A stretch of 64,000 bases of DNA, from NCBI GenBank assembly GCA_965178125.1, contig OZ237737.1:1054001-1118000 (forward strand). The letters run 5' to 3'. Of this stretch, positions 1-37,344 are shown piece after piece. A program made the position numbers and the translations under genes. This DNA comes from Bilabrum cf. latius (taxonomy: Eukaryota). The notes beneath the pieces were generated by a model. That model made no database searches. It saw nothing but the letters and a program-made list of their open reading frames with translations, and was not told where the DNA came from. Positions within the stretch are counted from its first letter, which is position 1. The number at the start of each line of letters is the position of its first letter.

Positions 1-10
1 TAATTTCCAG

Positions 11-1558
11 GATGACATGAAGAACGTGGGGCAGAGGTACCAGGCAGAGCTGGATCGAGAGAAGACCCAGCTGAGCATCGAGAAGGAGGAGCTCGAGGAC
101 CTGCAGCGGGAGTTCGGCGAGAGGCTCGCGGCCATGGAGGTGGCTCACCGGTCCGAGATGCAGAAGCGCGAGGCCGTGTACCAGGGATCGATCATGGAAG
201 AGGTGAAAAAGTACCAGGAGCTCGCAAGGGAGGTGGATAGGACGGCGGATGACCAGCGGAGCAGGAGACGAAAGCAGCTGCAGTCCCACAGAGAGGAAGT
301 TGCCGCGCTCACTGATAGGTACGAGAAACAGTTGGAAGCCGCTCGCAAGAAACGAATCGGGATGGAGGAAGCGAACGCCGGCCTGCTGCGCGACTGGTCC
401 GAAACAGAGGGGCAGATGACGGGGGATCTCGACGACGAGGTGGCGGAGATCAAGAAGCAGTACGAGGCGAAGCTGGAGCAGGAGAAGCAGATGATCCTGA
501 AGAACAAGAGCAAGTCTGGTGTGCTCAAGAAGAAGTTCGAGGTGCTCCGGCAGGAGTTGGATGACCAGGAGGAGGAGATGGCGGGCCTGCACGAGACGCA
601 GGAGAGTCTCCGTCTGCAGATCCAGACGCTCACCAAGGAGGTGCAGGTCCTCTCGGACATGATCGTGCAGAAGGACTCCAAGATCGGCGACAAGGAGAAG
701 CAGATCTACGACTTGAAAAAGAAGAACCAGGAGCTGGAGAAGTTCAAGTTTGTGCTGGACTACCGCATCAAGGAGCTCAAGCGACAGATCGAGCCGCGGG
801 AGCGTGAGATCCGGGCCCTCAGGAAGCAGATCAAGGAGGTGGATGCAGAGCTCGAGGAGTACCACGCGCTCAACGCTAGGCTTGACGAGAAGATTGGCGA
901 CCACCGGAAGGAACTGGGGGAGAAGACCAAGCAGCTGAACTAGGCGCAGCAGAGGCTAGCGGAGCGGATCGCCAGCCGGGACGCGCTGCTCGCCGACTTG
1001 GAGACGATCAGCGGGATCGTGCTGGAGCACGACCAGCTGTCCAAGCGAGTGCGTGAGATGTGCGACTTGCATGTGCCGAAGGGTCTCGTGGTTCCGAAAG
1101 AGTCGGACGAGGTCAAGGGCGAGTACGAGCGGCAGTCCAAGTATCTCGAACAGTCCGTGTCGGCCCTGCGAAAGAAGATTGGCAGAGACGAGGCGGCCAA
1201 CCGCGCGGAGAGCCTCCGAATCATGCAGCACAACATGAGGCTCATTCAGGAAATATCGGCTCTGCGAGCCGAGGTGCAGAAACTCAAGGCGAGACGATAG
1301 GAGATCCGGATGGGTCGGAGCGGCAGACCGGCAGCCAGCGATGGCGCCAAGGGGGCCGCAGGTGGTGGAGCAGGCTCTGCCACCGCATCAGGCGCGACCT
1401 CGGCCGCCGCGCAGAGCGCTAGAGCGTTGGATTTGTTGTCAAAGGTGGAGTCTGCAGAGGAGGAAGAAAGGAAGCTGAGCGAAGCGGCCGAGGTGTTGGA
1501 GCAGGCCCTGCTGCTTGCCAAGCCAGTCTCGGCTGCCGGCGCTGCTGGCACGATGTAA
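11..1558 (+). CDS. CFAP57: Cilia- and flagella-associated protein 57 (WDR65), last exon, 5'-partial; TAG read through at 941 and 1298
   Basis: Acceptor ...ttccag ends at 10. Coiled coil with the conserved IYDLKKKNQELEKFKFVLDYRIKELKRQIEPRE. ORFs 17-943, 998-1300 and 1310-1558 are one frame joined across TAGs and end at TAA. Confidence 0.88.
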
Positions 1559-1677
1559 TTGGAACTGACAAGAAAAATGCTTGCTGGTTAAAGACCGACC
1601 AGCATAAGCTGCGCGCAATCCTAGATCCCACGTGCTTCTGAGTTCAATGGTCTGACTCCACTATGGCCAGTGGCCAG

Positions 1678-3658
1678 TCACCCCACAAGCTTGCCAAACT
1701 GTGTCTGCAAATACGCCACAAACTGCTAGGCTGCCTGCGCCACGGACTGCGGTGGATGTGCTCGAATCATCCTCATGTACTCGATGCGCGCCGTTCGCAG
1801 CTGCGATGCCGTGGCTCGTCGCAGCATCCTCAAGTGGGTGACGGCACCCCGCCGGGCAGCCTTGCCTGACGGCGCCGCACCGCATGCTGCCAAGTCTATG
1901 GCAATTGTCTGCCCAGGGTCAGCCAACGCAGCTTTGGCGGCAACCTGCCTGGCTACTTCCTCCACAACCCGTTCGATAGAGGAGGCAAGGGCCCCCGAGG
2001 CTTGTCCAGCTACGGAGACAGACATGTGCGGCTTGGGCGCAGCGGAGTCCAGCAGAGCGGCAACCACAGCGTCGACGACACCTTTCGGCGGGAACTCCGC
2101 GTTTTCTTCTGTGTCTTTGTCTCTTGCTGCCGAACCATGTCCAACTCCTTCTCCAGCCCCACCGGCAACGGCCAAATCACTCGCCACTCCGCTAGTGTCC
2201 GTGGGCTTGCCCCCCTTGCCGTCGTCCTTTCCGTCCATCTGCCCGATCAGCGCCAGTCTTTCTGCAGCGTCATCGTCGTCCCCTGCCCCGATGGCTGCAT
2301 CGGAGCCAATGCTGGCCGCCCCGACACTGCCACCACCGTCATCATCCACACTGCCACCACCGTCACCGTCACCGTCACCGCCAGACGCGCTCGTCCCACG
2401 GGCCGCTGCTTCCGCCGCCAGTCTCAGCCTATCCTCTGCAGTCTCGCCCTCCGCGAGTGCTGAAGCCTCGGCTACCCTATCTGCTTTGGCCACCATGGCC
2501 TCTTGTTTCCTGCGGAGCAACGCCTTGGATGGCTTGAACAACGAGCCGCCGATCTTGCGAGCACCTGCCCCGCCACCGAGCCTGCCGGATCCGGTGCTGG
2601 CCCGACCTGTCGCCCCGGCAGCCACGCTGCCTGTAGAGGCACCCCCTGCAGCCGCAAGCCTCGGGGGTGCTGCGCTGACTGCCCCCTCTTGGGCTCGCAT
2701 TGATCCGCTGCCTGCGTCCACGGCGGACAGGGCGCTGACGAACTCGCTGGCCGACCTGGATTGCATGAACGACAGCTTCCCGCCGCCATCGCCGCCATCC
2801 TCGTCCTCGTCATCTTCGAGGCCAGTTCCGCCAGCTGCCATTCCAAGGGAGTGCCCGACTTGCCGCTCGTGGCCGGCGGGTCCATGCCCGTCATTCAGGC
2901 CACCCAGCACGCCCAGCCCCTGCCGCAGCGTGAACAGGGGCCGAGCCCATCGGTTCGATTCGTCTGGAACTTCAAAGCGCCTCCAAAGCTCTGTCATGCT
3001 GCGAAAACGAGTGTTACATACCAAAACATTCGAGTAGCACACACGGGTGCCATGCAGTCCCCAGCGGTAGAGAGCTGACGACCACGGATCTCACTCGTGC
3101 GGTTTGTATCCACCAGTACGTGCGGCATTCCACGCAATTGCAGCTCGACGCGGGGCAGTCACGTAAATCTGCGATACTTCATGAACGAATCTTTGTATGG
3201 AGACCTATTACTAGTCGGCATGATGCTCGGGTCCGTGGTGGGGCGTTCTCGCTCATTGGCTCACCACCGCTGACGTTGTCGCGTGCTCCTTGGCAGAGCA
3301 GTATAGCTAGTATCGGAACCCCTTTATGTAATTGATGGAATCAACTATAACTACAACGTCTTTCGACATGAGTCTAACCGCGGCGCTCTGCAGTCTACCT
3401 CTGGCTTCCTTTTCTCTTGTTGTTGCTGCGATACGAGAAACAGCCAAGCGCTAAATCTTGGTCCCCAATACCCATCCGTGCTATGATACACGCATGAGAC
3501 GATGTCTCACATGCATACGTTGTTGATCGATCAATTCCAAGCGTTTCCTCATTCAGGAGCTCGACTGTTGCCCCGCGAGAACGTAACGCAGCGGCGACTG
3601 TCTCAGCCACTTTCGTCTTGCCAGTGCACGGGTGACCACAAACAATAAGCAGTGGCAT
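1678..3658 (-). CDS. KTI12: KTI12 (Elongator-associated P-loop protein), 4 exons, long low-complexity insert
   Basis: MPLLIVCGHPCTGKT P-loop, then DSINYIKGFRY*LYC (TAG 3307-3309), then RRFEVPDESNRWARPLF, and C-terminal QQFVAYLQTQF after reading through TAG 1726-1728. GTGAG...GCAG introns; stop TGA 1678-1680. Confidence 0.9.
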
Positions 3659-3835
3659 GCTGTGGTTTTTTGTGCTCCTGGCGCTCGTTTTGGGACCTTT
3701 GCAGTGGACCTTGCGCATGTGACGAGCTAGTCATCTAATACCAACAATTGCAGTCCATAAAGGCAGTTTTCCTGAGTAATTATTCTACACTGGTTACTTT
3801 AAGTGTATTTCTTTGCGTTAGTTGACCGTAGCGCT

Positions 3836-4167
3836 ATGGATAAGCTGAGAAAGTGCTTTGCGGGGATCGTGACGTACGCCGATTTCAAAGACTGCAGAGT
3901 GTTCAAGCCAAAGCTGGAGTGCACCCAGGCTATGAAAGAATATGTCAGGTGAGGGATCCTGCGTGGAAGAATCTCTGCAACCGGCTTCGTGTAATCATCG
4001 TATTCTGCCGGCACATGCTAATTGTGTATCACTGCAGCTGCATGCAACGAAACCAAGGAAGAAAACCTGACCGCTACGAGCCAGAGTATTGCGAAGAAGA
4101 GAGACAGCTTTACAAGCTTTGCCGGGACGAAGTTAAGGGAGTGGTTGACGATGACAGCGATGAGTGA
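3836..4167 (+). CDS. Small twin-CX9C protein (80 aa), probable mitochondrial intermembrane-space protein; intron 3949-4037
   Basis: The spliced product contains CTQAMKEYVSC and CEEERQLYKLC (two CX9C motifs). GTGAGG donor, CTGCAG acceptor, TGA stop. Confidence 0.7.
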
Positions 4168-4881
4168 TTCATCACTGACTGGTGCCAGCCGATGGTTGTA
4201 CTATCGATGGACAAGGCAGGGAAGCTGCCTGTCACCCGCCTCACGACACAAAGTAGTAGTATATATTTGTAGTGATGTACTGCCCTGGGGTGCAAGCCGG
4301 TGCGATGGGCCGCCGTCGATGCGATGCCTGCAAGGGCCTCATGGCGGTGCCGTGGACATGCTGATTGCGTGCCTGGCTTTTCCCGTAGCAATGTACCCCC
4401 AGGTACCGGGTGCATCTCTGAGGCAACATCCTGGTGCAACGAAACGTGGCGTCTGTATGATTCACGAGGCAGTCGAAGGGGCAGTGAGCTAGCAAGTCGC
4501 GCAACGCAACGCGGGGGCTCAGCAGAGGCTCCAGCCACGCCTCCGCGGGTCTGCAGGCCACCGACCTCAGCAGTCTCTCCTGGAAGATGCGAACCTTCCC
4601 ATGGGCGCCGGGCTTCTTGCCGCTGTCCACGCTCCCGGCGGGAGAGGGTGAGGGGGCATTGCTCGCCACCGTCTTGAGGTCCAGTGCTAGCACAAAGCTT
4701 GCAATCTCAATCTCATCAGGACATCAGCTTGCGGCAGAAGGTATCAGTGCTTTTACTCAGGCATGCTGGGCTCGCGTGCGTGAGCGCCAGCAACCGAGGA
4801 ACTTCCCAGAGCTTTCTTGGAATGTTCGGCGGTGGATCATTTTTGCACATTGTTGTTGCAACACTTGGGAGTGTTTCCGAC

Positions 4882-5346
4882 ATGGTAATCCGTAGTACTA
4901 GAGAATGGGTAGCGCTACTGTATGCGTTCATGTGCGGATGCGTGATCGTTTTCCAAGTGTGCTTGATTGCCGGGGCCCCATGGGGTCGAATCACCCAAGG
5001 CGGGCAGATTTCAGGCGCTCTGCCGACATCGGGCAGAATCGCTGCAGGAGTATCAATATTAATTTTACTATTTTTTGCGTATTCAGTCCTCAGCCGAGCG
5101 AAGCTCGTGGCTGCCTGGCCAAGCTGGACTGCAGTGGCAACATTGATTGTGTAGAGCATTTCGATGTTCTTGAACTGGATCACCCCTTCAGAGCCGGAGA
5201 GGATGCTTTGGGGACCAATAACTACGATCATGTTTGCGCTGGTGTGTGCCAGTATTTTCGCGTGGCGGCAGGATGAAAGCACTGGCAGCCGACCGAGTGC
5301 TGGAACCCCGCCCAGCAGAAAAGGACAGAAGAGCACCGCATCGTGA
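4882..5346 (+). CDS. Intronless ~4-TM membrane protein (154 aa) resembling bacterial hypothetical membrane proteins
   Basis: FQVCLIAGAPWGRITQGG...LNWITPSEPERMLWGP. ORFs 4684-5154 and 5164-5346 are in frame across TAG 5152-5154; TGA stop. Confidence 0.7.
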
Positions 5347-5629
5347 TTGCGTTAAACGGCAGTTGAACTCGTCTGATACATAGGTATGTACACTACGGGT
5401 GGAGCGTTACACCAAAAGCTGTGCAACCAACCATTGTGTCGCAGGCATCAGCAGCCAAGCTCGAGTGAGACAATTTGTCGTTAGTGTCGCCCTTCCGTCG
5501 AGAACAACGCTCCTTGCACTGCCATTGGTTGAACTCAATTTGCTGCAGCATTCTTCAATCAATCCCAACCAGCGCTGTGCTAGACAACGCGATTAGCAAC
5601 ACCAATGCTCGCCGCACAACTAGCAGGGA

Positions 5630-6361
5630 TCACTGGCGCGCGCCAGCCTTTGCGATGCGCTTCGTCAAGTTGCCTCCCTGCCTACCAGACAGCTGCGTGA
5701 TATCCATGTCATCATCGTCGTCGTCATCGGGGGAGGAACTCCCTCCGCCAGAGACGGGCGCTGCCTTGCTGGCCTCACCACCCTTCTTGCCCCCCTTCTT
5801 TGCTTTCTTCTTCCCCTTCTTGCTGGCCTCTGCCAGTGCCGCCTCCCTCTTCTCAGACTTCTTCTTCTTGTTCTTTTTCTTCTGCTGCTGGGCGCGCTCT
5901 CGCTGGCGTTCCTGCGACACGTTGGACAGTCATGGCCAAAAAGTCAGACGAGTGCAGATCAGGCCTTTGGCAGGGATGGGCAGGAGCACAGGAACGGAAC
6001 GGGGATACTTTACACAGAATATGAAATCGGTCACTTGTCTCACCAGTTCTCTTTCGTGATCCAGCAGGGCCGCAACTTCCTGCAGTTGCTTCTCCCTTTC
6101 AACCTTCTCTTCTTTAGACTCCTCTACAACATCAGGCCCCTTCTCTTTCTTTGTGATGACTTTCTAGAAGTACTGATAAACCACTACGCCAGCTCCGATT
6201 ACGACGACCGTGCTAAGGTACCATGGCAGCAAATTGACAACAATGGCTAGGGAAATCACCAGTGCCAAAGGCGCGATGAAGTGAATGTTTTCCTTCGCGA
6301 TCTTCTAGACTGTAGCCCATCCCTTTGAGGGTTTGCTATCATGCGAGTCACTGGAAGCCAT
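5630..6361 (-). CDS. Hypothetical membrane-anchored, Lys-rich coiled-coil protein (199 aa); intron 6043-5912
   Basis: MASSDSHDSKPSKGWATV*KIAKENIHFIAPLALVISLAIVVNLLPWYLSTVVVIGAGVVVYQYF*KV..., spliced in phase 0 (GTGAGA/TCGCAG) to ERQRERAQQQKKK...; TGA stop. Confidence 0.7.
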
Positions 6362-6904
6362 CGCGATTTGCGTATTCTGGTTGCCGCACAAGCTGCGCGG
6401 TGTTCGGCTTGCATCCACACACACGTTACTTTGAACATTATACCGGAAAGACTGGCTTAGGAACGGCATCTTGTTTCGAGTTTCCTCGGTTTTCCCGTTG
6501 GTATCTCGAGCAACTAGCGCCAACACTTGTTGGCTTTTACCATAGTTGTGCTTCGGACCTTGCGGTGAGAATGAAATATTCGGTGATACTACATGCAGGG
6601 GGACAGTTCTGGTGCCAAGATCGCAACCGCAAGTGTGCAGCCCTACTCAGCCGTTTCTTGGATTTTGCATTGGTGCCTGGCGCTGGTTTTGCCTTTATCC
6701 TAGTGTTACTCGTTTGTTCTGCTGTCAACTGCGTGTTTGTGCCGCTAGTTGTGTCCCCAATCATGTGCCTTCACCAGTTGTGTTGTCGATCCCTCCTTTT
6801 TCTCGGTTGTTTGCCCGCAGCCCGAAGTACACACGGCTTTTAACTTGGCCAAGAAGCAGGTTAGGCGCAGCTAGGCGCAGCAACTGGCCTTGATACGTTT
6901 CGAC

Positions 6905-9900
6905 ATGTCGAAACCAGCCGAAGAGAAGGAACTGCCGAAGGGCGCCACGGAGTACCTGGGTCTGGAGCACGAGAAGCGCGATTTCACGACCGTGGCTTCC
7001 TAGTCACTCGCATCATCAGATGCTGTCGTTGATTCGCTTGTCGCACCTGGGGCGGAGCGCAACCTGCTGGAGGGCGCCGAGCACGTGTTCAGCAGCGCAA
7101 GCAAGTCTCACTTGAAGCAGCGCACCAAGGACCTCGAGCTCCTCCTCTCCGCCGGCGTGCGCGAAGGAAAAGGCAGCAGTGGATAGAACACCATGCGCCG
7201 ATTCGTGGAGAAGCTGGCGTCCTCCCTGGGAGAGGCCTCCGACTTCGACCGGTGGTTCGCCCGCCGGCTCGTCCTCAGCGAGATGGTAGCCTCGCGCGTG
7301 GACGCAGAGAGGAAGGCGGCCCGCCGGCCCCATCTGCCCGTCCGCATGGTCGGTGAGGTGGGAGGCCCGACGCACCAATCGCACGAGCTGGTGCTGCAGA
7401 CCCTCGCGTCGCTGGTTAGGGCAGCCCCCGTGGACGACCCGTCCATGGTGGGGGAGCCTCTCGAGGAGCTCCAGGAGTTCGCCGAGGAATTCAAGCCGCA
7501 GGAGCTCTTCAAGGACTGGTCCCCCGCCAGGCTTCCACCGGAGCAGCAGCTGGATACGGAGGGCGCCCGCTGCCAGGCCACGAGGGGTGCCGATACGGCG
7601 GGTGACTGCCTCGCCATGGTCGACGGGACTGTGGGGCTGCCCAGGGACTCGGAGTCGGACCGGGACAACAACGGGTGGTCCACCGGCAAGCTGACCACAA
7701 TGCCCACGGAGGGCGCCACGTGGACCGTCTGGCTGCGCGACTCGTCCACCATCGCCTCCCTGGAGCTGGATTTCTCGGACCCGCCCCAGAGCGTGGACGT
7801 GCAGGTGTACATGGCGCCGGCCCGCGTGTTCAAGTCCAGGAAGGGGATCTCATCGGAGGACGACGAGATCATCGACGACTAGGACTGGCGCAGCGTCGCC
7901 AGCAAGAAGCTGCCCACCGCCGTGCTTGAGGCGGACGGCATTCGGGTGAAGGGGTGGGCCGTGAAGCTACCCATGGGCTGCGTGACGGCATCCGGCGTGC
8001 GCGTGACCTGCCATGGGTTCCACCGCTCCAACAAGCAGGGCAAGGTCGGCCTACGGAGGGTTTTCCTGCGTGAGCCGGAGGGCAAGGCCCACTTCCGCTC
8101 CACCCCCAGGGTGATTGGCGACCTGCAGACGTGGCTGCACCGGGCGAGCCAGATCCCCGACCTCGAGGAGAGCTCCCTGCGGACCTCGCTTGGCCTGGCG
8201 GTGGCCTCTGCCTCGCAGGCTTCCATGCTGCGGTTCTGCTCGGCGCTCCTCGGGCTCGAAAGCTCACCCTCTTCCTCTTCCTCCGGCTCCGGCGGCTCAT
8301 CCGGGGCCGCGTCTGGAGCAGGAGGTGACGCTGGTGCCAGCGTCGGGGGGGCCAAGCCACAGTGGATGAGGCTGATGAGCCCCAACATGCTCACTGCCGT
8401 TGACGCGGCATCGCGTGCGGTGCGGCAGGCGCGAGCTGCGGCCAAGGACCGGCTGCAGACGCTGGCAGAGGCTGACGACAGCGGCGAGGTGCTGTCTCTG
8501 GACGGCTGGATGCGCAACGCCGCCTTCGATCCCACGCTGGGGGGCAGCCAGCCGGCTGGATGGACCCTAGAGAGCGACACGAAGATCCGGTCCGTGAGCG
8601 GGAGCACGTAGATCTGCCCCGTCCGCCTCGGCAGCGGGCAGGAGAGCATGTCGAGCGGACAGTGGCGGTGGAGCATGAAGCTGGTGGAGGATGACCATTT
8701 CAACGAGTGCACCGCCTTTGGGATCGTGCGCTTCCCCGTGCGGACCAACAGCTACTCGACGCAGGGCGAAACCTGGTCTGTGCGAAGCTACAACGGGCAG
8801 TGCTACGGTTCGGACATGGCGCAGCGAAACGCCAAGCCGATCCGCAAGGGCACCACGACGATCTTTGAGCTGGACCTGGACGCCGGCACGCTGAGCATGC
8901 AGGCGGAGGGGCAGCCGATGGAGGTGATCTACAACAATCTGCAGGGAGGGGCCTACCTTCCCTTCGCGGGATCGTACACGCCTAACAGGGTGATCGAGCT
9001 GGAAAGGGTGGAGCGCATCCTGTCCCCAGCTGAGATCAGGGCGGCCGAGGCCGCCCTCGCGGCCGCCGAGGCGGCGGCCAACGGCGTGGGCGGGGAAGAT
9101 GACGACGGACTCGACGACGATGAGGCCCCGCCTCAGCCCGGCTCGCCTCCCGAGGCACCTTAGCCTCTGGACGCGCAGGACCAGGAGGCATCTGTGGAGG
9201 CACAGTTCGGAGCTGCCCTACGCGCCCTCACTGAGGGCGACATGCGCGTTCACTGGTATCTCGCTGGTGCCGCCCTCCGTATGTCTGACGGCGACCTGGA
9301 CAAAGCCAAGGAGCTCCTCGAGTCCGGTGAGGCCGGCGGTTCCGCCGAGCTGACGGAGCACAAGGAGCGCGTGAAGGAGTCGGAGGAAGCCGAAGCAAAG
9401 TACAGCAAAGAGAGGGAGGAGTGGGAGTCAAAGCGGGAGATTTACGAGGCCTACCAGCGGCTGCTGCAAGCCAAGGCTGCCAAGGCAGCCCAGGGGAAGG
9501 GCTCCGCCACAAGCGCCCGTACCGCCCTTCGCGAGGTGCTCCGCATCGTATCCAGGCTGGATTCGATCGCGGCAGTCTTCTGCCCCTACGACCCCGACGC
9601 CCAAGAGGCCATCACTGGTCGCAAGGCCGGACAGCGAGCTGCCGGAGAGGCGTCTGCTTCCACTGCAGGAGGCAAGGAGGCATCGCCTGAAGGCGCCGAG
9701 GACGGCGAGGACGCTGCAGCAGGCGCAGCTGCCAGCGGCGCGGGCAGCAGCAGCAACTCAAAGAAGGGCAGCAGCAAGAAGGGCAAGTCCTCTGAAGAAT
9801 CGGCTGTGGTCACTGCCAAGCGGCCCAAGAATGCCATGTCTCCCGAGGAGGCCATGGACCTGGAGGAGCCCTTCGGCATCATGGCCAGGGGCGAGACCTT

Positions 9901-12900
9901 CAAGATGCTGGGTGAGCTCCTCAATGCCGTGCTCCCCGTGGTCAAGGGCCACCCCGAGGCGCGCGCCAAGATGCCAAAGTCACTCGACAGCATGGACGAG
10001 GCGAGCGCGGCGGGCAAGGAGGAAGCCTCGATGGAAGAAGTCGTCCTGTCCGCCTGCACCCAGCTGAGCCTCAGGCTGCTGCACCTGGTGCGCGCCAACA
10101 TCGAGCGGCTGCAGCAGGCGCACGTCGATCCCTCGGAGGCGGGCATTCGCACCTCCGGGCCGCGCGCATCTCTGCGTTAGCTGAACGAGTGCCTGGGACG
10201 CATCCTGTCTTCCGACAAGGAGTACCCTCCCGTGCTGCAGCGGGCCGCAGTGGAGACCACCCGCGTGGGTCTGGAGGTACTGTATGGCACCGCTGAGCAG
10301 AGGGCAGAGCTGCTGGACAGCCTCATCACGCACCGAAAGAACGGCACGCTCTCGCCAATGCAGGCAGAGCTGCTGCTCCGGTGCCTGGAGCGCTTTTCTA
10401 CGCCCGAGGGTGTTGTGTCGCTTCTCCCGCCCACTCGCGCCGAGATCCGCCTTGCAAAGCGACGGCTCGAGGCGCTTCGTGGATCTGCTGCTGGCGAGGA
10501 GGGCGAGGCCGAGCAGGCTGCTGGCCCCGGCGACGGCGAGAAGCCAGAGGATGCCACTGGCGTGTTGTCACCGCCCCGCAACCAGCGCCGCGCCTCTTCC
10601 GCGGGTGCTGCTCAGGCGAGGCGCGCCGGCGACAAGGTCGGTGCTCTCGTCCGACAGCTGCTCGAGGTGGTGCGTGACGCGACGCTTAAGTCCGTGCGCG
10701 GGTCGGTGGCCGCCCTCGGCGGCGCCAGCACGGCCGGTGCGTCCAGCGACGACTCCGAGGTGGTGCACGACGAGCTGGCCGAGGCCCTGATGGAGCACGG
10801 CTCCAGGCTGCTGGGCGCATTCCAGAGGCACCTGGTGGAGATCGCTCGGTCGGAAGTGAGGGCCTCCGTGGAGGAGGGGCGTGACGCGGCTCGCGCTGCC
10901 GCCAAGAGAGTCGGCAAGGTTGCCGGGGAGTACGGCAGCGGCGTTCGTGCTATCGACGAGGTTAAGGACGAAGCAGAGGCACTCAAGCTAGACATCGCGC
11001 TGGTTGGCGAGTCGTGGGTGTCTCGGTCCAGCCTGGCCAACGCGCCGGCATGCGTTCTCTTGCGCGAGTACGTGCTGCTCGTGGCCTCCACCGCTCAGGA
11101 GGTCGTGGATCTATCCCACGAGACCGCTGCCGACATCCTCAAGCCCGATTCTCCCGCTGGCGCGGAGAAGCTCAAGGGCGGTGCGCTCACTCGCAGGCAC
11201 GCCGTGGCCCGTACCTGTGCCCATTTGCTGCGGCAGAGTCTCCTGGGGCAGCTGCTGCCCGCCCTGTCTCTGTCCCTGTACCAGCTGCGGGCCCAGCCTT
11301 GGCTCGCTGCTAGCGCGGTGCCTGGCCTGGTGCGCGTGGTGAGCGCTCTGGATCGTCTCAACGCCCACCTGCTGCCGGCCACTGTGCAGTCAGAGCGGGT
11401 GCTCAAGGGCCTGAACGACGAGCGTGCAGTGGAGTTTGCGCCCCCCAAGGCACTCCTCGTTGACGCGGACGCGGATGACGACGACAGCGATGACGAGCAG
11501 GAGGAGGAGGTGTTCGAACTTGAGGACGAGGACGAGGAGGACGAGGAGGAGGAAGAATTCGAAGACGAGGACATCGAAGATGGCGATGACGAAGACGACG
11601 AGGAGGCTGCCGCTGCCGCCGCGAAGGAAGCTGCGGCTGACGATCCCGCGGTGCAGACGTCCTCCTGGAGGTACCCTCAGGGCGACCTGCTGTACCGCGG
11701 GTTCGTCACCACCGGTGGAGACCGCCAGGACGTGTGGGTTCGCCTCCACGTGGAGCTTGATGAACGGGCGCTCGAGAGAACTCGCAAGGCCCGACAGCAG
11801 GCCGCAGAGCTCAAGAAGCGCAAGCGGCACGCCAAGGGCGGCGACCCGTGGGCCCGCATGGACGGCAGCAGGCTGCCTCTGTACCGGGTGTCTGGATACG
11901 GTGTGGTGCGCGAGGGGCCCCGACGGGTTGTTCTCCGTGGCTCTGCCACCGCTGCTGGGCGCGTCGCAGCCAAGCTGGAGTTCCTGCCGCTCCCCACTGA
12001 CGAACAGACGGGCGAGCGCCCGCCGCCGCCCGTCCTGCTGCTGGTCAGCGAGGCTGGCGAGTACGGCGAGGGCATCCGCGGCGCGTGCCTTCGCGCCGCA
12101 GACAGCGCCAAGCACGGCGACACGGACGCGAAGAAGGCGGCAGCGGCCGCCGCGGTGCCTTTCAAGGCTCGCGTGCCCAAGGTGCGCTGCAGCCCGGTGC
12201 CCAGCAACTCGTTGTTCAAGCGCGCGGAGGCAGACGCAGCGCTCGGCTTCTCCTTCTGGTTGGCAGAGCAGGACCAGACGCCAGGTTCAATCTCTGCTAT
12301 TCGCCGCGCGCAGGGATCGCTGAGCGCGACGGACGAGTCCCTGTAGAAGAAGGCCCTCGTCGGCGCAATCAACGAGGCTGTGCGCAACCATTCCGATCAG
12401 TCGGAGGGCGGTAACGACCTGCACGGGGCACTCTCTGGCTCAACACGCCACGACGTGCGCGATCCGATCCTGATCGTGGAGAGGATGCTGGTGGTTGCAG
12501 CGGCATCGGCCGCTCAGGAACTCGTGCGCGGCCCCCGCGTATCATACGAGGAGGAGCAGCTTCAGACCCTGCTAGGTTCGGCCATCGTCGCTGGTGGACT
12601 GCACCAGCGGTTCCTCCGCGGTGCCGAGGGTGACATCGCCACCGCCATCGCGAAGCCGGACGCAGACCTCGAGTAGGCTGCCTCTGTGATCGGAAGCAAG
12701 GCGCTGACTCCTTCGAGGGGGATCGGTCTGCCCCTGGAGTGGGTGGCAGCATACGATTCCGCTGTGGCCGGCAGGCAGCCGACTGCGGACGAGGTCCTGG
12801 ACGCCGAGTCCCAGTCTATGCCAGCGAGCCGCGGCGAACTGGAAGAAGACCGCTTCGCGTGGCGCATCTGCAAGGCGAAAGGCAAGGACAAGGATGCCAC

Positions 12901-15900
12901 TGGAAACAAGATCGTTGCCTGGCTCAATGAGCTGTACCCGGAGGACGCGCTGAACAGGAAGAGGAACCAGTACTCGCGCGTGACCATCCCAACGCTGCTT
13001 GCGGGCGCAAAGCACGCCGGCGGCACGGCTATGGGCGAGCTACGAGCTGCTGCCCAGGCATTTGACTCCGATTCCGGCCTGACAGCGGAGCAGTATGCCG
13101 AGAAGAACAAGGCAGGTGCCGACCTGGAGGTCGTCTGGAAGCAGTGCCAGCGCTTGCGCACGTTCCTGAGACAAGAGGGCATGCGCCTAAAGCAGAAGAA
13201 GCTGTCGGAAGGCGACCACGGCGCCGTAGCCGCTGCTGATGACGGGAAGGAAGGTGGGTCCAGCGGAGGCTCGGGATCCGGTGCTGCCGGCGGTGGCGGC
13301 GGAAGCGACGACCCGATCGACGACGAGAACGAAGATCCGGAAGCCGCAGCAGCCGAGGCGGCTGGTTTTATCCGTGAGAGACGGTTCCAGCCAGTTGAGA
13401 TTGGGGACATGAAGGAGCTCAGCAAGCAGGCCCGTCAGCTGGCGCTGCTCATGATGCAGCTGCGGCCCGCTCGCGTGCCCGCAGCTACAGATGAGGAGGC
13501 TGGCGGGCCCGCTGGCGAGGACGACCTCTCAATGGCACCTCCCAGTATGGCTAGGCAGGCCTCTGCAGTACAGGACTCGATGGGTCTTGATCAGCTCCGT
13601 GCTAAGTGGTCCGAAGTTCTGCCCGTGCACGTGCTGCAGCCCCTGATGCGCCGGTGGCAGGCGGGGGGTGAGGGCAAGACAGATGATGACGACATGGCCG
13701 GCGAAGGACTCGAGGGCGTGCTAGCCCGTCAGGCCTCGTGGCAGCGCCGCGCCTCGGCCGGTCTAGAGGACGGCGCTGACGACGAAATGGGCATGGTGGG
13801 ACGCGGTGCAAGCCACGAGCTGGCGCTTCGGGGGTCCTCGGACGCCGGCGCCATAGGTCTGGTGACCGTGAAGTCTCCCGCAGAGGCAGCGGCAGCCGCC
13901 GTGGTCGATATGGTGGTGCAGGTCCACTGCTACCCCGCACCCATGCTTCGCCGCCTGCTCTTCTGGCGCCTGGAGCGCGCACGCTCGCGCGTGTTTGGAC
14001 TGCGCGCCCTCGGTGAGCTGCTCGACTCTCTGGCGCTTGCATCTGCGCAATGCGACGCCCTGCGATCTGTTCGCGCCGGGCTCAGCGGAGACACGGAGCG
14101 CAAGCAGGCGGAGCGCGTGGCCACTGAGGGTGGCGGCAAGGGGCAGGGAAGGGACCATGCCGCCATTCTAGAGGCGGTACGAGAGGCGATCTCCAGCCCC
14201 ACCGCCGAGGGCGACCTGCAGACTGATATCCGTCGGGCAGTGAGCACCCTTGGTTACGCAGTCGGAAACCCGGCCTACGTGCCGTCTTTCATGACAACCG
14301 TGTTCCCCGACGGCGAAGAGTTCGAGGTGTCCGAAGACGATGGCGCCAGCGAGCAGTCGGACCTGTTTGGTTCGAGCACGGCAACGACGTACAACCGCTG
14401 CCGCCGGCAGATTGTCGAGGCTTGGGACAAACACGGCGTCAAGAAGTCGGCCGGCGAAGAGGAGGATGACAGCAGCGTGGACTAGGGGCCTTGGGGCACC
14501 CGCCACCACTACCTGCAATTCCTGAGCGGGTGCAGCACCAGAGTCCTCGACTCGGTCCAGAGGGCGCACCTTCACCTCATGCAGCGCGTGGGCGACATCA
14601 TGAGCGAGGCGAGCGCGCTTGGCGACGTCGAGCGAGCGGCCCTGGCTTCATGGTCGTGGGCAACTGACATGGAAGCGAGGGACCACGAGTTCCTCGTTAG
14701 GGTGAACCTCCTGCCCGCGCTGAGGCGAGTGGAGGAGGGCGCATCCATTTCAGGCCTTGCGGCCACACTGGCAAAGAGGACTGACGAGGCCGCTGCGGCT
14801 CTAGCGGCAGAGACCCGAGATGCGTCTGAGTTGCGTGATATCGCCAGGGGCTCCTCTGGGGCGGTGCGTGGGGCTGCTGCTGTGGCTCGTGCTCTCGGCA
14901 CCGCTGCCGGGGGCGCAACCTCTGCTGCAGTCGCAGGAGTCGGCTCGTCTTCAGCCATTGCAGCGGCCGGCTCCGAGGCACAGTCGAAGGCGGACATGGT
15001 TGGTGCCGCAGGCTCCGACTGGAGGCCTTGGCGCCTCGATCTGTTGCGGAAGGGACTGATGGCAGGCACGCTCACGAAGCGTTCCGTGGTGTCGCACATG
15101 CAGCGCGCCCCCGATGCATGGGTCAAGCGGGGCACGGCCGCTTTCGCCACTCCGGAGGAAGAAGTGGCGGCGCGGGGTGCCTGCCGGAGCTGGCTCGCGT
15201 CGAGAGGCCTCGACGGCGACCCTGCCGAGGCGGCGGCACGTTTCAGTGCCCCTGATCTTATCAAGGCGTATGCTCAGTTCGGCCCATCGGGTGCTCGCAC
15301 GCTCGATCTGCTTAAGGACGAGAGCAAGGTGTCTGACTAGGGCGGCTCGGACGGTGCCGCTGAAGGTAACAAGGCCAATTTGGGCAGGGAAGAGTCCCTT
15401 GTGCCTGTGGGACCTGGGTCTGGCGGTTTCAAGAACTGCCGCGTCAATTGGAACAAGCGCACGTCCGGGTCAGCCGAGGACCCGCTCGTAGTGGACATTC
15501 AGGCAAAGGGCCCGGCTGCCAAGGCCAAGCCCACCGTGGGCGAGGCCCCCCTCAAGACAGGCACGTCGCCCGTGTGGTGCGATCAGCCGCGATCGCAGAT
15601 CAAATCCCTACCTGAATCGTGGTAGGGACGCGCCTCAGGCAGCATCTCCATGGTGCGCCCTGCGGCTGCAAACCGCGTAGCTAGGATCAACGGGTCCCTT
15701 ACCTTCTCGCTTTCTAGGCCTGCTAGGCTGTACGTCGGCTTCAAGTCGGGAAACAACACGATCTCGGGGCAGGACTGGCTGAAGTCTTATTTCGACAAGA
15801 CGGCCTTGACGCTGTCTGTGGGGCCGGAGAGCGGCAGCGATTTTGCCCTGGAGATCTGGGCCTCTCACCACGTCTACGTGCCCGTCCGCGGTGCTTCCGA

Positions 15901-18900: not shown

Positions 18901-21900
18901 GTGGCGAGGCCAAAAGCCTGGAGAAGGATTTAGCGAGTCGTCGCAGCCAGAGCCGGGTGTCAACGAGATCGTGTACATCGAGCTCGACAAGAGCGGCGGG
19001 ATTGGCACGTTCGTGCACACTCGCTGGAACGGCGTGAAGCTGTCCAGCAAGTCCTCAAAGAAGGGCAAGAAGGGGAAGAGAGGCAAGAAGGGGAAGGACA
19101 GGTCGGGCAGCGATGAGGCAGAGGACGTGGACCGGAGCATGGACGCAAGCGCAGCAGAGGACGTTGTGCCTGCAGCTCTCGGAGGTGCTGTCGCCGCAGC
19201 TGGTGGAGCAGCCGCCGACACATCTGAAGGAGGGGATAGTGGAGACATTTCTGAGCTCGGTGCTACGACTGCTGCTGGCTCACCTGGTCCCGAGGAGGAA
19301 GGTGGCGCAGCCGGGACAGCTGCATCTGGTGCATCTGCAGCCGACGACGAAGTGCCGGCGATAGTGCGCGACATTCCGTCCCTGCCAATCGAGCTGGAGC
19401 TTCGACCATCGCCCTTCGTCAACTCCTCGTCTGACGCCGCACCTCTCGAGGCAGTCACTGCCGCCGCGGCGAAATCTTCATTGCTCTCGACGTCCAGCAG
19501 CCGCGGCGGGTTGAGCGCGGCGGAGCGCCGTGTCGCACAGGAGTACGGCCTGAGCAGTGGCAATGCAGCGGATGATGAAGAAGATGGTTCCAGCGGGCAG
19601 GCAGACGGCATCGCCTATCAGTGGAACACGGGTGCGCGGGGCTACACCCTCGGGCAGCTCTCCCAGGTCGGCCAGGAAGGCAGTGCCGACCAGGGGGCGT
19701 GGCAGGGAGTCAGGCGAGCCACGTTCAAATTCGTGCAGCGAGATCGGTACTCGAACCAGATCAACGTCGGCCTGAGTCGGAAGTCCAGGCCCAACAACCA
19801 GCGATATCTGGGTCAGGATAGCGACAGCTGGGCGCTGTAGACCGATGGGCAGTTCATACACAAGAGCTAGTACCGCATGCTGTTCTCGTCCATGGCTGGG
19901 TACGGTCGTGGATTCAAGACTGGCGATGAGGTCACCTTCACCCACGGTCCATCTGGCTAGATCACGGTGCAGGTGAACGACGACCCGCCGGTTACCGCGC
20001 CGTTTACGGTTGCAGAGCCGCTCTTCCCAGCCGTCTCACTTGGCGACAACATGCAGCAGGTGGAGATTGACTGCGACCCGCCGTTCAGCTTCGACCAGAC
20101 GGTATTGGCAGACAGGAGCAGGGATTCAAAGGCACCGATCCACCGGTCGATCCAACTCGTCGGTGACAATGACAAGCTGATCAAGTGCAGGGACTACTCC
20201 ACTGGAGCCACAGCCATCGCAACCGTCAAGGGGGTGTCCGTGGACGCGCCGCCGGAGCTCGCCCCTTTCGTTCGCCTGTACTTCGCGGGCAGGCCTCCAT
20301 CGACAGTGCGCAAGGCGATGGAGAAGCTTGGCTTCAGCTCGAAGGAGGTGGTGCAGCTGTTGGAAAGGTGCGAAGGGCAGATGCTCAAGGACTTCCACAA
20401 GTCGCTTGGGCATGGTAGCAACGAAGATGACGAGGAGGAGGAAGAGGCGGTCGCTGCGGCAGAGGGCGGTGCTGCTTCTGGTGCCGGGGCAGACTCTGCT
20501 GGCGCGGCCCCTGGCCTCGGCTCCGACGCCATCAAGGTGGCCACGCTCCTGGACTAGCAGGAGAAGGCGCAGGGTAAGGCTGTCATCGGCTTGTCGGCGG
20601 CTGATCGCACTGTGAGTAGCGTACAGTACGTCGGAGAGGATGTCGTGCTCCTCCATGCCATCGAGTTGCCCAAGGTCGAGCGTCAGAGGCGAACCAAGCG
20701 ACGCGACAAGTCCGGCAAGAGGCAGATCAAGACGGTCGTTGTAGATGATCCTGCCAAAGGAGCCCGCGCCTCTAGAACGCTCCGTCTGGACGCCCGCTTC
20801 TCTTAGTTCTGTGCGAGGGTGGCACTCTCAGACGCAACCATGGGTTCAAGCCGATTGGCCCGCGGTGTGGTCTTCGAGGCGATTGGAGATGGAACGCTGC
20901 TGTGGAAGAGCAAGGTCATCCACGAGGCCAGGGAGATCGACCAGGTGCGTCTGTCTGTCTTCTCGGTGGAGCAGCTGTAGCTGTGTGTGCGCGCTGCCTC
21001 GAAGTCTGAGTGCGATCAGGAGATGAGCAACGCGCTGGAGCAGTCGGAGGGAGCTCTTCCCGACAAGGATGCAGAAGGACTCAAGGACGGAGACGGTATC
21101 GACTAGCTGCCCATCCCATCGGCTGGATGCCTGTGGTTCTCGGCGCAGGTCAGCGGAAAGGGTGCATCCAGGCTGCCGGTAGGAACGCCTCTCGCAATCC
21201 TGAGCCCTAGGCTGCTTGAGGGCGAGACCGCTCCACTGCCGCCAAGCATGCGCGGTGGAGAGGAGGACGAATCTGACGATAAGTCCAAGAAGGACAAGAA
21301 GAAGAAGAAAGATGAAGAAGAAGGCACCAAGACCCGCGGTGGAATCCTCACCGCTGCCCCAGGACGGCACCACCCCTGGTGCAACTACGCAGCCGGGCTG
21401 AGGGCCCTACCAATCGTAACCTATGCCCCGCAGGAGGACCAATCCGGCTCTTCAGGCCCGTCCTCGGGCGCCGGTGGCGAGAGCAAGGTGGATGAGGGGG
21501 ATGAGGCCGCCGTTGTCGGAGACGCTGGTGCCACGCACTCCGGCGAGGAGGGCGGCTCTGATGACGGGGAGCAGTCAGGTGCAAGCGGTGGCACACTGAG
21601 GGTCAATTATCTCGACCCCGCGACCGGCCTCGTGGTTCCCCGGGACGTCCCGGTCCGCGTGCTTTCCAGCATTTCGACGCTGTTCGGCAGGAAGCTTGAG
21701 GATGACGAGTCGCAGAGGGAAGCCGCTGCTGGCAGTTGCGGCCAGCTGGCCGTCCTCTCTGCTCGGCACTGCCTGCAGGCCGTGGTGGATTCTGTTTCAA
21801 AGGCAGCCGAGCAGGCGAGAGCAGTTGCTGCTGCCGCTGCGCAGGCAAGTTCCGACGGGCCGCCCTCGATGCTGCCGCCTCCTTCGCTGCTGCGTCAGGC

Positions 21901-29388: not shown

Positions 29389-30991
<1,603 letters not shown>

Positions 30992-31341: not shown

Positions 31342-32985
31342 TCACAAGGGATTCTCAACATCATCATAAAGCGGGGCCCTGGTGCCATCGTCAAGATCTG
31401 CAGAGTATCCGCCCATGTCTGCTGCCGTGCTCGACGACGGGCGGCCCCCGATGGAATACTGCGGGCAGAGCCTATCCGCGAGCATGATGTATACCACCAC
31501 CAGAAGAAGTAAGACGCAGATGGTCGCCGCAGCAGCCGCTCCTTGCACTGCCCTGCGATCCTTCTGGTTCCAGCCCTCCACCGCGGGGGGATTGATGGTT
31601 CCGGGGTTCCGGGAATCCCAGGCCGGCTGGAACTCGTACAGGTCGTTTGGCTTGCCCGTGTCGCCGTACATGAGCATGGAAGACCCCATGGCAATCGCCA
31701 CGGGCTTGGCGTGCTTGCCGGGCGACACCCCGGTGGTCTGCACCACACCGAGCCAGGTGCGGGTGGAGATGTGGTACATCCACAGCTCGTCGGAGGCACC
31801 CTGCGCCGTCTTGCCACCGAACATGAAAATGTTGTCGCCAACCACCGCGGCCGCGTGGCCGAACCGCCCGGATGGCGGCGTGCCTGCGGTGATGACCCGT
31901 CTCCAGTCCGCCCTGTCCGTGGCATCCCCCGATCCCACTCCAAGCCCGGGGGGCGTCAGTTCCCAGATGTCGTTGTAGAAGACGCACTTTGCCCGCGAAT
32001 CGCTGCGATGGAATTCGAAGCAATCATGCAAGCTGCCAAGATACAGCACATCGCGAGAGTATCAATCCCCCGCAAACCTCCGAAGCCTGCTGCTTGCTGC
32101 AACGAGCTGCGATGGAATTCGCATCAAACATGCAGACATCACGCCCAGGCTTTTGCGTGATACAAAAGGTATAAGTAAAACAACAAGAATCGGTTTCCTC
32201 ACTCGCAGTTGGTGTACTGCTTGTACGACACGTCGTGCGAGAAGCCCCCCACCATCAGTAGGCTGCCCCCGTACGACACCACGGCATGCCCGTTCCGAGG
32301 CTCGGCGGCGGAGTTCTGCTTGACCTTGCTCCAGACAATGACGCCGGGGCTCTTGTTCAGCAGCTGGTAGGTCGGGAATGCCCAGAGGTCGTTGAAGTAC
32401 TGCTGCTCGTTCCACCCACCAAATAGCCAGACGTAGCCGCCCAGCGTGGTGGTCGAGTGGCCTGCGAGCAGCACACATCAAAGAATTGGATAGGTTGCAG
32501 TCATGCGATTATGCAGTGAAATACCGCGTTTGATGCATTGGCTCCAATCGCTTACCATTGCGAGCTGGCGGGGCAGCGGACGGGTTAGGGTCTGCCTGCA
32601 AGATTTTCCACTGCGACGATGCCTGCGTGGCGTCCGCGAGATCCGTCAGCAATAAGAGTTCCTATGAAACGGATTGTCCCGAGGCCTTGCCGCCGAAGAC
32701 AAGAAGGGAATCTGCGGTGGCTGCCAGGCCAGGAGCCGACAGCTGCTGCGGCAGCCCGGCAAGCTGCTGCCAGGTCGATGTCGTGGAGTCGAACGCAAAT
32801 GTTGAGTTACCACCCTATTGGTTCCCCCCAACTAGCACCATGGACCCTCCGACACGGACCGCAGAGTGCCAGGCGGAGGATTGCGGTGGCGGACCTTGCG
32901 TCGAGCGAAGGAGCCAGGACCCAGTCTCCGCTGCATGGCAAAGAACTATAGCAGCCGAGGCCAACAACAACAGCTTTGGCTACAT
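31342..32985 (-). CDS. Kelch-repeat type I membrane protein with signal peptide, 3 exons
   Basis: Starts ATG TAG CCA AAG (M*PKLLLLASAAIVLCHA). Kelch repeats GHSTTTLGGYVWLFGG, RNGHAVVSYGGSLLMVGG, RFGHAAAVVGDNIFMFGG; C-terminal TM ICVLLLLVVVYIML; TGA stop. Confidence 0.85.
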
Positions 32986-33328
32986 AGACTGACGTGATCG
33001 ATGCGCGGTGCCACGTGACAGTTCAAACAACCAAATCTGCGGTGAGAGTCGATCCAAATCCTGTACCAGCCTGAAGCATTATCCGCATACCATAATTGGT
33101 GTCTGATTCGAATAGCACACAAATCAATGACAACTTCCTCACAAGAATGCTTGATCCCGCTGTTCCACAGGCTACTTGAACTCGGGATACTCGAGCAAAC
33201 ACACATGGGCCAAACGTTACGGCGCCGCGCTTCGAGTTGCGGAACCTCAGGTTGATGAACAAGTTGCGACCACAGAAACCCGAACGGTGGAATTGTTTCA
33301 ATAATCAAGAGTGCCGCTAGACGGCACC

Positions 33329-35236
33329 ATGAGCGAAAAGCGCTCAACTTTGACGAATGTCCTTTTGACAGTGTACTCTTTGCTTTCATTATGCTGTATT
33401 GTGAAGGCAAACGATCGCTGTCCGACCAGTGTGAGGAGTTGAAGAGGTTCACGCGCAATAGTCTCGACCCAGCTAGTTTTTCTGGCTCGGGTTCGTGTAC
33501 AGGTGCACTGGTTCCTTCCTTTATATCTAGATAATATTACTTTCCTGCAGTGGACGTTTTCGGAAGTGTCTCCTCACGGTAAGCCTAGATAATGAAGTAG
33601 CTTTCTTTTTGGCATTCGCATATTTGTTTTCTGTCATCACATACAGATATAAGACGGATCTCTGTCTCCCTTTTGGTCTATTATACTCCTCAGGTGATTT
33701 TTGTTACAGGTACACGAGCGGAAGTAGGAGTGAGTCCTGTTGATGGCACAGCGGCTGTGCAGTTTCACTAGAGGAGCCGACGTATCATGTCTGCTTGATC
33801 CCGTCATTCACACAATTTTTGGTATTCGCAGCTGGATACTAGCAGGAATTGTACTGCAGAGTGAGGACAATAACTTGAATGTACTTCAACAAGCTGAATG
33901 TGCTTCGTTCTGGACTGGTTGCCTCGTTCGCCACGAGAACGCGTTCACTTTTGTTGCTGCCTTGCTAGCAGAGCTGGACATCTGGTGGACACTTGACTGG
34001 TATCCACAACACTGCGGAGAATAACCTCGTCTACGGCCTTTGCCTCAGCAAGAACTGCTGGTGAGTTTAGAGACCTTGCTGGCCCACCAACCACAAAAGC
34101 CCTTCCAACCTTGCTGAGCAAACGTCTCCAAATAGTTGCGGTTTGACCGTGCACGCGATTGTCTATAGGCGTTCCAAGTTCTCTCCTGGCAGGATCGGCT
34201 TGACTGACTGGGCTCGCGAGGGACGGTGGGACTGGCGGGACGGTCTGCCGTACGGCTACTCCAGGTAAGATTCCTGCAACTTTCCAGGACTTCACGCGGC
34301 CTTGCCTAAATAAACCAAAGTCACGATCACTAGTCTGCCATTGTTGCAGGTGGCACTCTGGGGAACCCAACAACTGCTGCGGTAAGTTTTATTGGCTTCT
34401 GCTGTTTCATCCATCCATGAACGCTCTGTCATTCCTTTACATTTCATGTGATATTTGGTTTCATGCCGCGCAGGTGGAGAGGATTACGTAAGGATTGGGC
34501 AGGACCTACCGCATCTGCGGCAGGATGGAGCAGTCACCGAGCTGCTGAGTTAAAATTACGACCGCCTAACCCAATAAACAAAATTGCAATTGTTCGTGGC
34601 TCTCTATATTCCACAGGTTCATATGTGGTCTGCGGGTGGCGCGCAACCAACTTGGAACGACGTGGGATCTACTTATTCTACCCAGGGCGTGTGCTACGTC
34701 AAAGCAGGGTGCAAGAAGGGACAGTACAAAAGTGGAAGCAGCTGTACGGCATGCCCTGCCGGGAGGTACAGGCCAAACGGAGGTGGAAATGGCGTCAATG
34801 ATTGCTTGTATTGCGTGAGAGTGCCTCGTGCCGCGTTCCAAACCCGATTTGCACGCAAATCCGATCGGATTTGCCGACCAAATCGGGTTTGGAACGCGCT
34901 GTCAGCATCCGCGCCACACACCGCAGTGGTTCCGCTGCCTTCATGACTGTACCTTCCCCATCATGCTTTGCTGCCGATTAAATCATTCCATCGCAGCCCG
35001 CCGGCAAGTATGGGAGGTACACTGGACGGACCACTTCCAACTGCGACGGCGACGCCAGCCGCGGCTACTACACCACGTCTGGCTCCACCCGGAGTACGCG
35101 ATACTCGTGCCCTGCCGGCGTGTACTCCAGCGGCAACGGAAACTCGAACAACCAGTGCTCGGGTTCGTGCGCCGCCGGATGCTATTGCGGCATTCGCTCG
35201 ACCTCCTCGTGCCCCAACAAGTGCCCCGCCGGCCGG
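33329..35236 (+). CDS. Multi-exon secreted/surface C-type lectin with Cys-rich (GCC2/GCC3-like) repeats, interrupted by the viral insertion
   Basis: Signal peptide MSEKRSTLTNVLLTVYSLLSLCCIVKA. Exons encode GGHLTGIHNTAENNLV, WIGLTDWAREGRWDW, WHSGEPNN and WNDV, then CPAG repeats. The frame stops making sense at ...CPNKCPAGR where the palindrome begins. Some small 5' exon boundaries are uncertain. Confidence 0.8.
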
Positions 35237-36384: not shown

Positions 36385-36407
36385 TTATTATCACTGGTAG
36401 TAATTAT

Positions 36408-37319: not shown

Positions 37320-37344
37320 TTTTTTTTTCTACAACCTAGTTATA

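Follow-up and report, generated by a model that had tools for sequence, protein, structure and literature searches.

What the codon TAG means is the question raised by a stretch of 64,000 nucleotides (nt) from Bilabrum cf. latius (GenBank assembly GCA_965178125.1, contig OZ237737.1, positions 1,054,001 to 1,118,000 of the forward strand; hereafter the window, with positions counted from its first letter), in which nuclear genes appear, under the standard code, to be broken by this one codon. An earlier note, made from the letters of the window, had claimed that the nuclear code of the host reads TAG as glutamine while TAA and TGA stay stops, and the claim is borne out by the codon counts of the host genes, by contigs from public sequencing runs, by a diverged orthologue of one of these genes with CAG opposite TAG, and by a glutamine opposite a TAG of the KTI12 gene. 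In all likelihood nuclear UAG is glutamine and UAA and UGA are the only terminators, which is the pattern of NCBI table 15. The window falls into two parts, with a GC share of 0.52-0.68 per 2 kb in the first 35 kb and of 0.33-0.44 in the remainder. The GC-rich part is composed of ordinary eukaryotic nuclear genes, seven of which are seen (for a coiled-coil protein, KTI12, two membrane proteins, a giant HECT E3 ligase, GAPDH and a kelch-repeat protein), and the AT-rich part (35300-64000) consists, as predicted from its genes, of several units of mavirus-like virophage DNA, in which the open reading frames (ORFs) are open only if TAG is a sense codon.

The protein of the HECT gene is recognized by a C-terminal HECT match in Pfam (E 1.8e-57) and an NPCBM match (E 4.5e-8), and its frame on the forward strand, from 6587 to 28321, comprises 7,245 codons with 28 TAG, no TAA and a single TGA, which is the terminator. 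In the remaining two reading frames over these positions TAG occurs 19 and 24 times, TAA 7 and 16 times and TGA 99 and 146 times, and measured against these counts the HECT frame shuns TAA and TGA and tolerates TAG. This pattern is beyond chance, and neither chance nor decay would give it. The frame is open over 7,244 codons only when TAG is sense, no such frame being obtained with TAA or TGA as sense, and the longest ORF of the GC-rich half increases from 1,283 to 7,245 codons under the same single condition. Two of the 28 TAGs are taken out by an intron in the 5' leader (6564-6819) and a third precedes the first ATG at 6905, which leaves a coding sequence (6905-28321, +, with a TGA terminator) of 7,138 sense codons with 25 TAG, 220 CAG, 15 CAA and no TAA, so that TAG makes up about 10% of its glutamine-type codons. 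The count of about 25 TAGs in a 21-kb frame previously given for this gene therefore agrees with the coding sequence from the first ATG, the whole frame having 28.

As to the residue, when metagenome contigs were searched with the 699 C-terminal residues of the HECT protein, one locus was recovered, L017, of 7,994 nt, which is, judged by its alignment, the orthologous gene of a diverged relative. The two genes share 67% nucleotide identity, and among 2,347 aligned codon pairs 1,676 specify identical residues, 903 of them with a synonymous codon change, which indicates that the HECT gene is under purifying selection in both organisms. The frame of L017 (2,419 codons) contains 8 TAG and neither TAA nor TGA, and is followed by TGA TGA. 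Eleven TAG sites are aligned, three from the window and eight from L017, and at six of them the partner codon is CAG, for which the binomial probability is 1.5e-7, given that CAG represents 2.7% of the aligned codons. A CAG of the window stands opposite a TAG of L017 at window codons 4854, 5076, 5561, 6695 and 7199, and the window TAG at codon 5962 stands opposite CAG, with contexts such as THKHTLTK-Q/TAG-SHGGTLPV, located inside the HECT domain, and RIGSPAGT-Q/TAG-QRVITLLS. Taken from the side of the canonical codon, the 63 aligned CAG codons of the window are matched in L017 by CAG in 34 cases, TAG in 5 and CAA in 4, i.e. by a glutamine-type codon in 43, and TAG is found opposite none of the 146 GAG, 126 AAG, 31 TGG and 19 TAC codons of the window. 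The TAG columns, for which an alignment mostly to another residue or to gaps had been named as the refuting outcome, are thus TAG/CAG pairs at six of the 11 orthologous sites, and TAG is interchangeable with CAG between the orthologues of two diverged species.

That the TAGs are also present in transcripts is indicated by public sequencing runs, 15 of which contain part of the HECT gene, with half or more of the sampled words in seven. Four runs, from four studies, were compared with positions 1-20000 of the window in the form of Logan contigs, from which rare variants are absent. Run X1 yielded a 47,952-nt contig that is colinear with the window and represents genomic DNA. From the contigs of runs X5 and X8, six segments, 85-256 nt in length and with the ends GT..AG, or CT..AC on the opposite strand, are missing (2999-3094, 3169-3264 and 3426-3510, all in KTI12, as well as 3946-4034, 5911-6042 and 6564-6819), and it is inferred from these splice joints, no run being listed as RNA for this stretch, that the contigs derive from spliced transcripts. 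Over 6820-11456 and 11564-20000 the X5 contigs show no changed letters and no gaps, the repeat at 11457-11563 being skipped, and the contig that starts at 11564 is 16,861 nt long, a length that implies approximately 8.4 kb beyond position 20000 and would reach the end of the HECT gene. Base differences in the four runs are limited to six (2342, 2344, 4567, 4574, 4576 and 4592), none of which is at a TAG. To the extent that contigs allow a judgement, the unchanged TAGs in the intron-less contigs, together with the agreement of the four runs, rule out sequencing error, editing and removal by splicing; both outcomes that had been named as fatal to a sense reading, removal of TAG from the RNA and CAG in the underlying reads, thus failed to appear, the intron-less contigs keeping their TAGs and the contigs of the four runs having neither CAG nor any other letter at the TAG sites within 1-20000. 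Genuine, expressed genes under purifying selection commonly carry TAG in frame and keep it in their spliced transcripts.

The KTI12 gene (1674-3662, -) is assembled from exons 3662-3511, 3425-3265, 3168-3095 and 2998-1674, the splice joints being those of the X5 and X8 contigs. Its spliced ORF of 567 residues begins with the P-loop sequence MPLLIVCGHPCTGKT, matches the KTI12 family in Pfam (E 6.3e-9), contains two TAGs (3307-3309 and 1726-1728) and is closed by TGA. The first of these TAGs sits within NYIKGFRY-TAG-LYC, and in the alignment of the exon with the solved KTI12 structure (PDB 6qp0, E 1.6e-10) it is opposite the Q of the motif NYIKGWRYQLYC. The earlier note had placed a TAG here at a column where homologues have Q or E, and the position and the Q are confirmed by this alignment; other KTI12 proteins presumably carry E there as well as Q. 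In a low-complexity insert of the same gene (2323-2389), three of the four runs have a 24-nt insertion after 2323 and base changes at 2342 and 2344, which resembles a polymorphism in repeat length or a discrepancy of assembly.

The kelch-repeat membrane protein gene (31342-32985, -, putative exon structure; three TAGs, TGA terminator) had been described as having TAG as its second codon ahead of a signal peptide. The ORF at 32509-33078 (-) indeed reads ...SM-TAG-PKLLLLASAAIVLCHA, with no ATG upstream in frame and with kelch families matching downstream, and the TAG at 32980-32982 directly follows the ATG at 32985-32983 and precedes a hydrophobic leader, so that the order ATG, TAG, leader is present and the start codon is a probable one; the two further TAGs are at 32815-32817 and 32662-32664. 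Among the remaining host genes, the 3' part of the coiled-coil protein gene (2-1558, +) has TAGs at 941-943 and 1298-1300 and a TAA terminator, the ORF of a small multi-pass membrane protein (4822-5346, +) has one at 5152-5154 and a TGA terminator, the small membrane protein gene at 5630-6361 (-), with its intron at 5911-6042, has two at 6305-6307 and 6164-6166 and a TGA terminator, and the last exon or exons of GAPDH (29921-30991, +) have none and end in TAA. Six of the seven genes therefore hold in-frame TAG, GAPDH being the exception, and their terminal codons are TAA in two (coiled-coil, GAPDH), TGA in five (KTI12, both membrane proteins, HECT, kelch) and TAG in none, in keeping with the claim that the host genes are broken only by TAG and closed by TAA or TGA. 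In-frame TAA and TGA never occur, and TAA or TGA closes every gene seen.

In the AT-rich half, ORFs of at least 300 residues are absent under the standard code and amount to 13 when TAG is sense, to 1 when TAA is and to 1 when TGA is, and it is certain that the virophage DNA uses TAG as a sense codon. Fifteen virophage ORFs contain 88 TAG, 160 CAA and 57 CAG codons (TAG being 88 of 305, or 29%, of the glutamine-type codons) and are terminated by TAA in 11 cases and by TGA in 4. For the meaning of the codon, profile hidden Markov models (HMMs) were built without the query from 130 capsid proteins, 22 integrases (the two closest omitted) and 4 primase-helicases and scored against family composition; the capsid homologues had been retrieved with a query in which TAG was rendered as Q, which introduces little bias, as the query is left out of the HMM. 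Over 22 TAG columns the emission scores place Q on top with 14.7 bits; R (10.9) is next, ahead of E (4.9), K (4.3) and H (4.0), and L, I, F, W and Y are below -19. In 6 of 19 TAG columns Q ranks among the three most frequent residues, compared with 14 out of 38 columns of CAA/CAG and 81 of the 868 remaining columns, which argues that TAG columns behave as glutamine columns. A likewise low signal at loosely conserved sites is described for Iotanema by Panek et al. (PMC5304391), where Q dominates 23% of UAG positions and 20% of canonical glutamine positions, and where UAG and the canonical codons align to Gln with about equal frequency.

Individual virophage proteins add to this to differing degrees. 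A relative of the integrase, P0156, which is 80% identical to that of the window, carries Q at 7 of 10 TAG sites, the remaining three being E, E and H. For the primase-helicase only four foreign homologues were available and 3 of its 12 TAG columns could be aligned; the protein P0151 of a public collection, from a 12,257-nt contig, is the window's primase-helicase itself, stored with Q at all 12 TAGs, which implies that an automatic gene caller chose TAG = Gln for this DNA, and no mention of this translation was found in the literature. The fragments P0002 and P0016 are uninformative on the code used by the gene caller. The paralogues within the window (protease, penton and MCP, the capsid protein) are 23-44% alike and too distant to be of help, the residues opposite TAG being H, N, H, I, K, N, R, Y, S, K and K. 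Altogether, TAG in the virophage genes very probably means glutamine.

It has to be noted that several observations weigh against glutamine as the meaning of UAG, and these are considered here together with the alternatives. Five of the 11 TAG sites aligned between the window and L017 pair with GTG, ATG, TCT, CGC and GAA, and the GTG (codon 4840) and the ATG (codon 5790) sit in fairly conserved contexts; the other three, found once each, lie beside gaps or in poorly conserved stretches, and because only 43 of the 63 CAG sites keep a glutamine-type codon, five mismatches are no more than expected at 71% identity. In the virophage genes, the integrase taken alone is weak (Q 5.0 versus R 3.9 bits), and the Qs of P0156 may be TAG rendered as Q by the collection's gene caller. 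A pairwise tblastn comparison with 16 IMG/VR loci, judged by ORF length to use the standard code, was ambiguous over 47 TAG columns at 25-37% identity, with S best, R at -1.6 and Q at -2.7 bits, and with R, Q, T, K and E all within 3.7 bits of S; bootstrap controls overstate the power of this test, since real residues anchor alignments and X does not. A sense codon for another residue (Glu, Lys, Arg, Ser, Leu or Tyr) could draw on these distant virophage relatives, which left S, R, Q, T, K and E unseparated, on the second place of R in the HMM test, and on the E that is assumed beside Q at the KTI12 column. Such a residue is nonetheless very improbable, given that CAG is the partner at six of the 11 orthologous sites and GAG, AAG, TGG and TAC at none, that CGC, TCT and GAA appear once each in poorly aligned stretches, and that L, Y, W and F are strongly disfavoured in the HMM test.

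The number of gene ends is a further point on the negative side, as only eight terminators are seen, seven in the host and one in L017, which are too few to exclude an occasional UAG stop, so that the absence of TAG among them is weak evidence against a dual, context-dependent UAG that would be sense within genes and a terminator at some ends, in the manner of Condylostoma or of UAA in Blastocrithidia. This arrangement is regarded as unlikely, though less so than a different residue: no gene seen closes with TAG, the last TAGs of the integrase and of MCP fall well before the ends of full-length homologues, and dual-meaning codes usually involve every stop codon found in frame, whereas here TAA and TGA are never in frame. 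Another reservation is that the runs were compared as contigs and not as reads, and that the RNA nature of two of them is deduced from splice joints. That the TAGs are untranslated, the product of pseudogenes, assembly or sequencing errors, RNA editing to CAG, splicing bypass or low-level readthrough, can nevertheless hardly be credited. Nothing was found in favour of it, the letters are the same in four runs from four studies, the spliced transcript contigs retain the TAGs, purifying selection acts on the L017 orthologue, which has TAGs of its own at different glutamine sites, just one of the three stop codons is affected, and 25 readthrough events in one mRNA would give no protein. Two other codes were tried and rejected, namely UAR = Gln (table 6), with no in-frame TAA and, in the AT-rich half, 1 ORF of at least 300 residues with TAA as sense versus 13 for TAG, and a code without dedicated stops of the Condylostoma type, only TAG of the three stop codons being in frame.

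Also to be counted against the proposal is that the machinery it calls for is not found within the 64-kb window, which contains neither a tRNA whose anticodon is CUA (only Pro(TGG) and Met(CAT), neither of which reads UAG) nor the eRF1 gene. By analogy with other UAG-only codes, a tRNA-Gln with anticodon CUA would pair with UAG and not with UAA, and an eRF1 with weakened recognition of UAG would probably contribute. This specificity of tRNA-Gln(CUA) has been shown in Tetrahymena and predicted for Iotanema (PMC5304391, PMC11687900). The virophage DNA, written in the host code and with TAG more frequent than in the host, would be expressed by, and adapted to, the translation apparatus of the host.

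The AT-rich half is, on its gene complement, made up of mavirus-like virophage endogenous elements with a putative host junction at approximately 35.3 kb. Its virophage gene set includes MCP (54026-55753, -), a penton-like protein (55785-56696, -), cysteine proteases, an A32-like packaging ATPase (57805-58827, -) and an integrase of the rve family (61383-62594, +), to which a second penton-like gene (36408-37319, +), a primase-helicase with DUF5906 (45063-47654, -) and an RNA ligase (41225-42319, -) are added. Pfam assigns MCP_V20_C (E 4e-15) and rve (E 1.7e-19), and MCP matches the PDB entries 6g45 (E 4e-32), 6g43 (E 2e-22) and 3j26 (E 9e-9), of which we take the first two to be mavirus capsid proteins and the third the Sputnik capsid protein. 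Homologues of the penton, protease and ATPase occur in virophage-like loci of IMG/VR. Scans of IMG/VR with MCP or the primase-helicase as single proteins returned no relative, an alignment of MCP proved too diverse for use in scanning, a tblastn of MCP against a phage collection gave no match, and the primase-helicase has one named homologue, from an oomycete, a match that concerns a viral gene.

Inverted repeats of 50 nt, 92% complementary, at 49248-49297 and 62597-62646 flank a 13.4-kb unit (49248-62646) in which the genes for MCP, penton, protease, ATPase and integrase are found and which has the appearance of an entire virophage-like element bounded by terminal inverted repeats; its left arm is duplicated at 48740-48785. 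A diverged second set of protease, penton-like and MCP-like genes (35863-38220; TAGs 1, 2 and 1) is 23-44% identical to the set at 54026-57267 and may be truncated, as the MCP-like ORF stops at 38220, and at least two different virophage-like elements are located side by side. Between this first block of capsid genes and the next ORFs, a tandem array at 38872-38971 comprises four to five copies of the 20-nt unit TTTCACCTGTCGCATGGGAT. The two tRNA genes of the virophage DNA, Pro(TGG) and Met(CAT) at 42678-42748 and 42994-43064, are 74% alike with common acceptor and T arms, and resemble copies of one gene that differ in the anticodon arm; Paez-Espino et al. 2019 (PMC6905037) noted tRNAs for Met(CAT) and Pro(TGG) in virophages from metagenomes. 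Direct repeats of 300 nt, 89% identical and spaced by 2,997 nt (44762-45061 and 47759-48058), exactly flank the primase-helicase gene, which suggests that it sits in a duplicated or inserted cassette. Just outside the inverted repeat on the integrase side, and touching the end of the window, the ORF at 62705-64000 (-) combines two domains, a Tet/JBP-type 2OG-Fe dioxygenase (E 3.5e-25) and, fused to it, an FkbM-type methyltransferase (E 8e-8); it may serve in the modification of DNA bases and travel with the virophage DNA.

The code variant itself is rare but already known from a few other eukaryotes, and the added interest lies in the diverged relative and in the virophage DNA with the same code. 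According to Panek et al. 2017 (PMC5304391), the fornicate Iotanema spirale, an anaerobic gut flagellate, reads UAG as Gln with UAA and UGA as stops, ends 104 of 119 genes in UAA, has the eRF1 substitution T32G and a predicted tRNA-Gln(CUA). The reassignment in the window is identical, with UAA and UGA still serving as stops; the present case differs from Iotanema in that the host DNA is GC-rich (60-68% GC), that TGA is the commoner stop (five of seven) and that virophage DNA is present at the locus, and its base composition and choice of stops make it unlikely that the host belongs to an Iotanema-like or another lineage already known. The list of precedents in the earlier note, Iotanema and a few ciliates, is slightly outdated, as Protocruzia tuzeti and two phyllopharyngean ciliate lineages, in which UAG is Gln and UAA a stop, have since been added (McGowan et al. 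2024, PMC11687900). These ciliates share with the window the uncoupling of UAG from UAA and the residue, and differ from it in that UAA accounts for 87-98% of their stops, whereas the window, on a GC-rich chromosome over a length exceeding 64 kb, has many short spliceosomal introns (85-256 nt), in which it is unlike the macronuclear DNA of ciliates.

The same source (PMC11687900) lists UAR = Gln (table 6) for Tetrahymena, hexamitids, oxymonads, ulvophytes and Amoeboaphelidium, as well as the reassignment of UAG alone to Leu in a rhizarian and a ciliate and to Ser in Scotinosphaera. Table 6 codes resemble the present one in the change from stop to glutamine, probably via a mutation of the tRNA-Gln anticodon, and differ from it in that TAA is unreassigned in the window. 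For the viral side, the one precedent is provided by the endogenous viral elements of Streblomastix strix, which use the TAA/TAG = Gln code of their host (Bellas et al. 2023, PMC10120064), i.e. integrated polinton- or virophage-like DNA in a host variant code, the difference being that UAG only is affected here and that the element is mavirus-like. In full text, with subscription journals and supplements outside reach, no report was found of UAG = Gln in a stramenopile, apusomonad, ancyromonad, labyrinthulomycete or other heterotrophic flagellate, nor of a virophage with a UAG-only code. Searches for the affinity of the host gave little: the best Atlas cluster for the HECT end is diatom-dominated (score 0.79), which is a weak lead only, and the GAPDH look-up in the Atlas led to bacterial GAPDH clusters. 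The earlier note's guess of a stramenopile flagellate is neither backed nor contradicted by these results. The SPRY/NPCBM part of the HECT protein, with seven TAGs, retrieved nothing among 8,000 candidates in a homologue search, which is weak evidence; in the PDB its NPCBM part had no match and its SPRY part marginal matches only (E 0.05 and 0.6), at variable positions.

Tentatively, and with a chance put slightly below even, the window may belong to a variant-code lineage that has not yet been reported, neither ciliate nor Iotanema and possibly stramenopile, with at least two species (67% DNA identity) and with virophages that are rewritten in the code and confined to such hosts, which by implication would apply to a giant virus too. 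If true, this would be a natural genetic-code barrier that shapes a three-way virus-virus-host system in eukaryotes. Since the code is shared with a diverged relative, the reassignment is old and fixed, and since the organism turns up in several sequencing studies, it appears culturable. In practical terms, standard-code gene calling would split most long genes of this organism, and under such annotation its endogenous virophages would look like decayed pseudogenes, though they are intact under the right code. UAA and UAG nearly always change their meaning together, and each lineage that separates them tests whether a CUA tRNA and a retuned eRF1 are sufficient; with its GC-rich genome segment and TGA-heavy stops, the present case is set apart from the known lineages, which are dominated by UAA.

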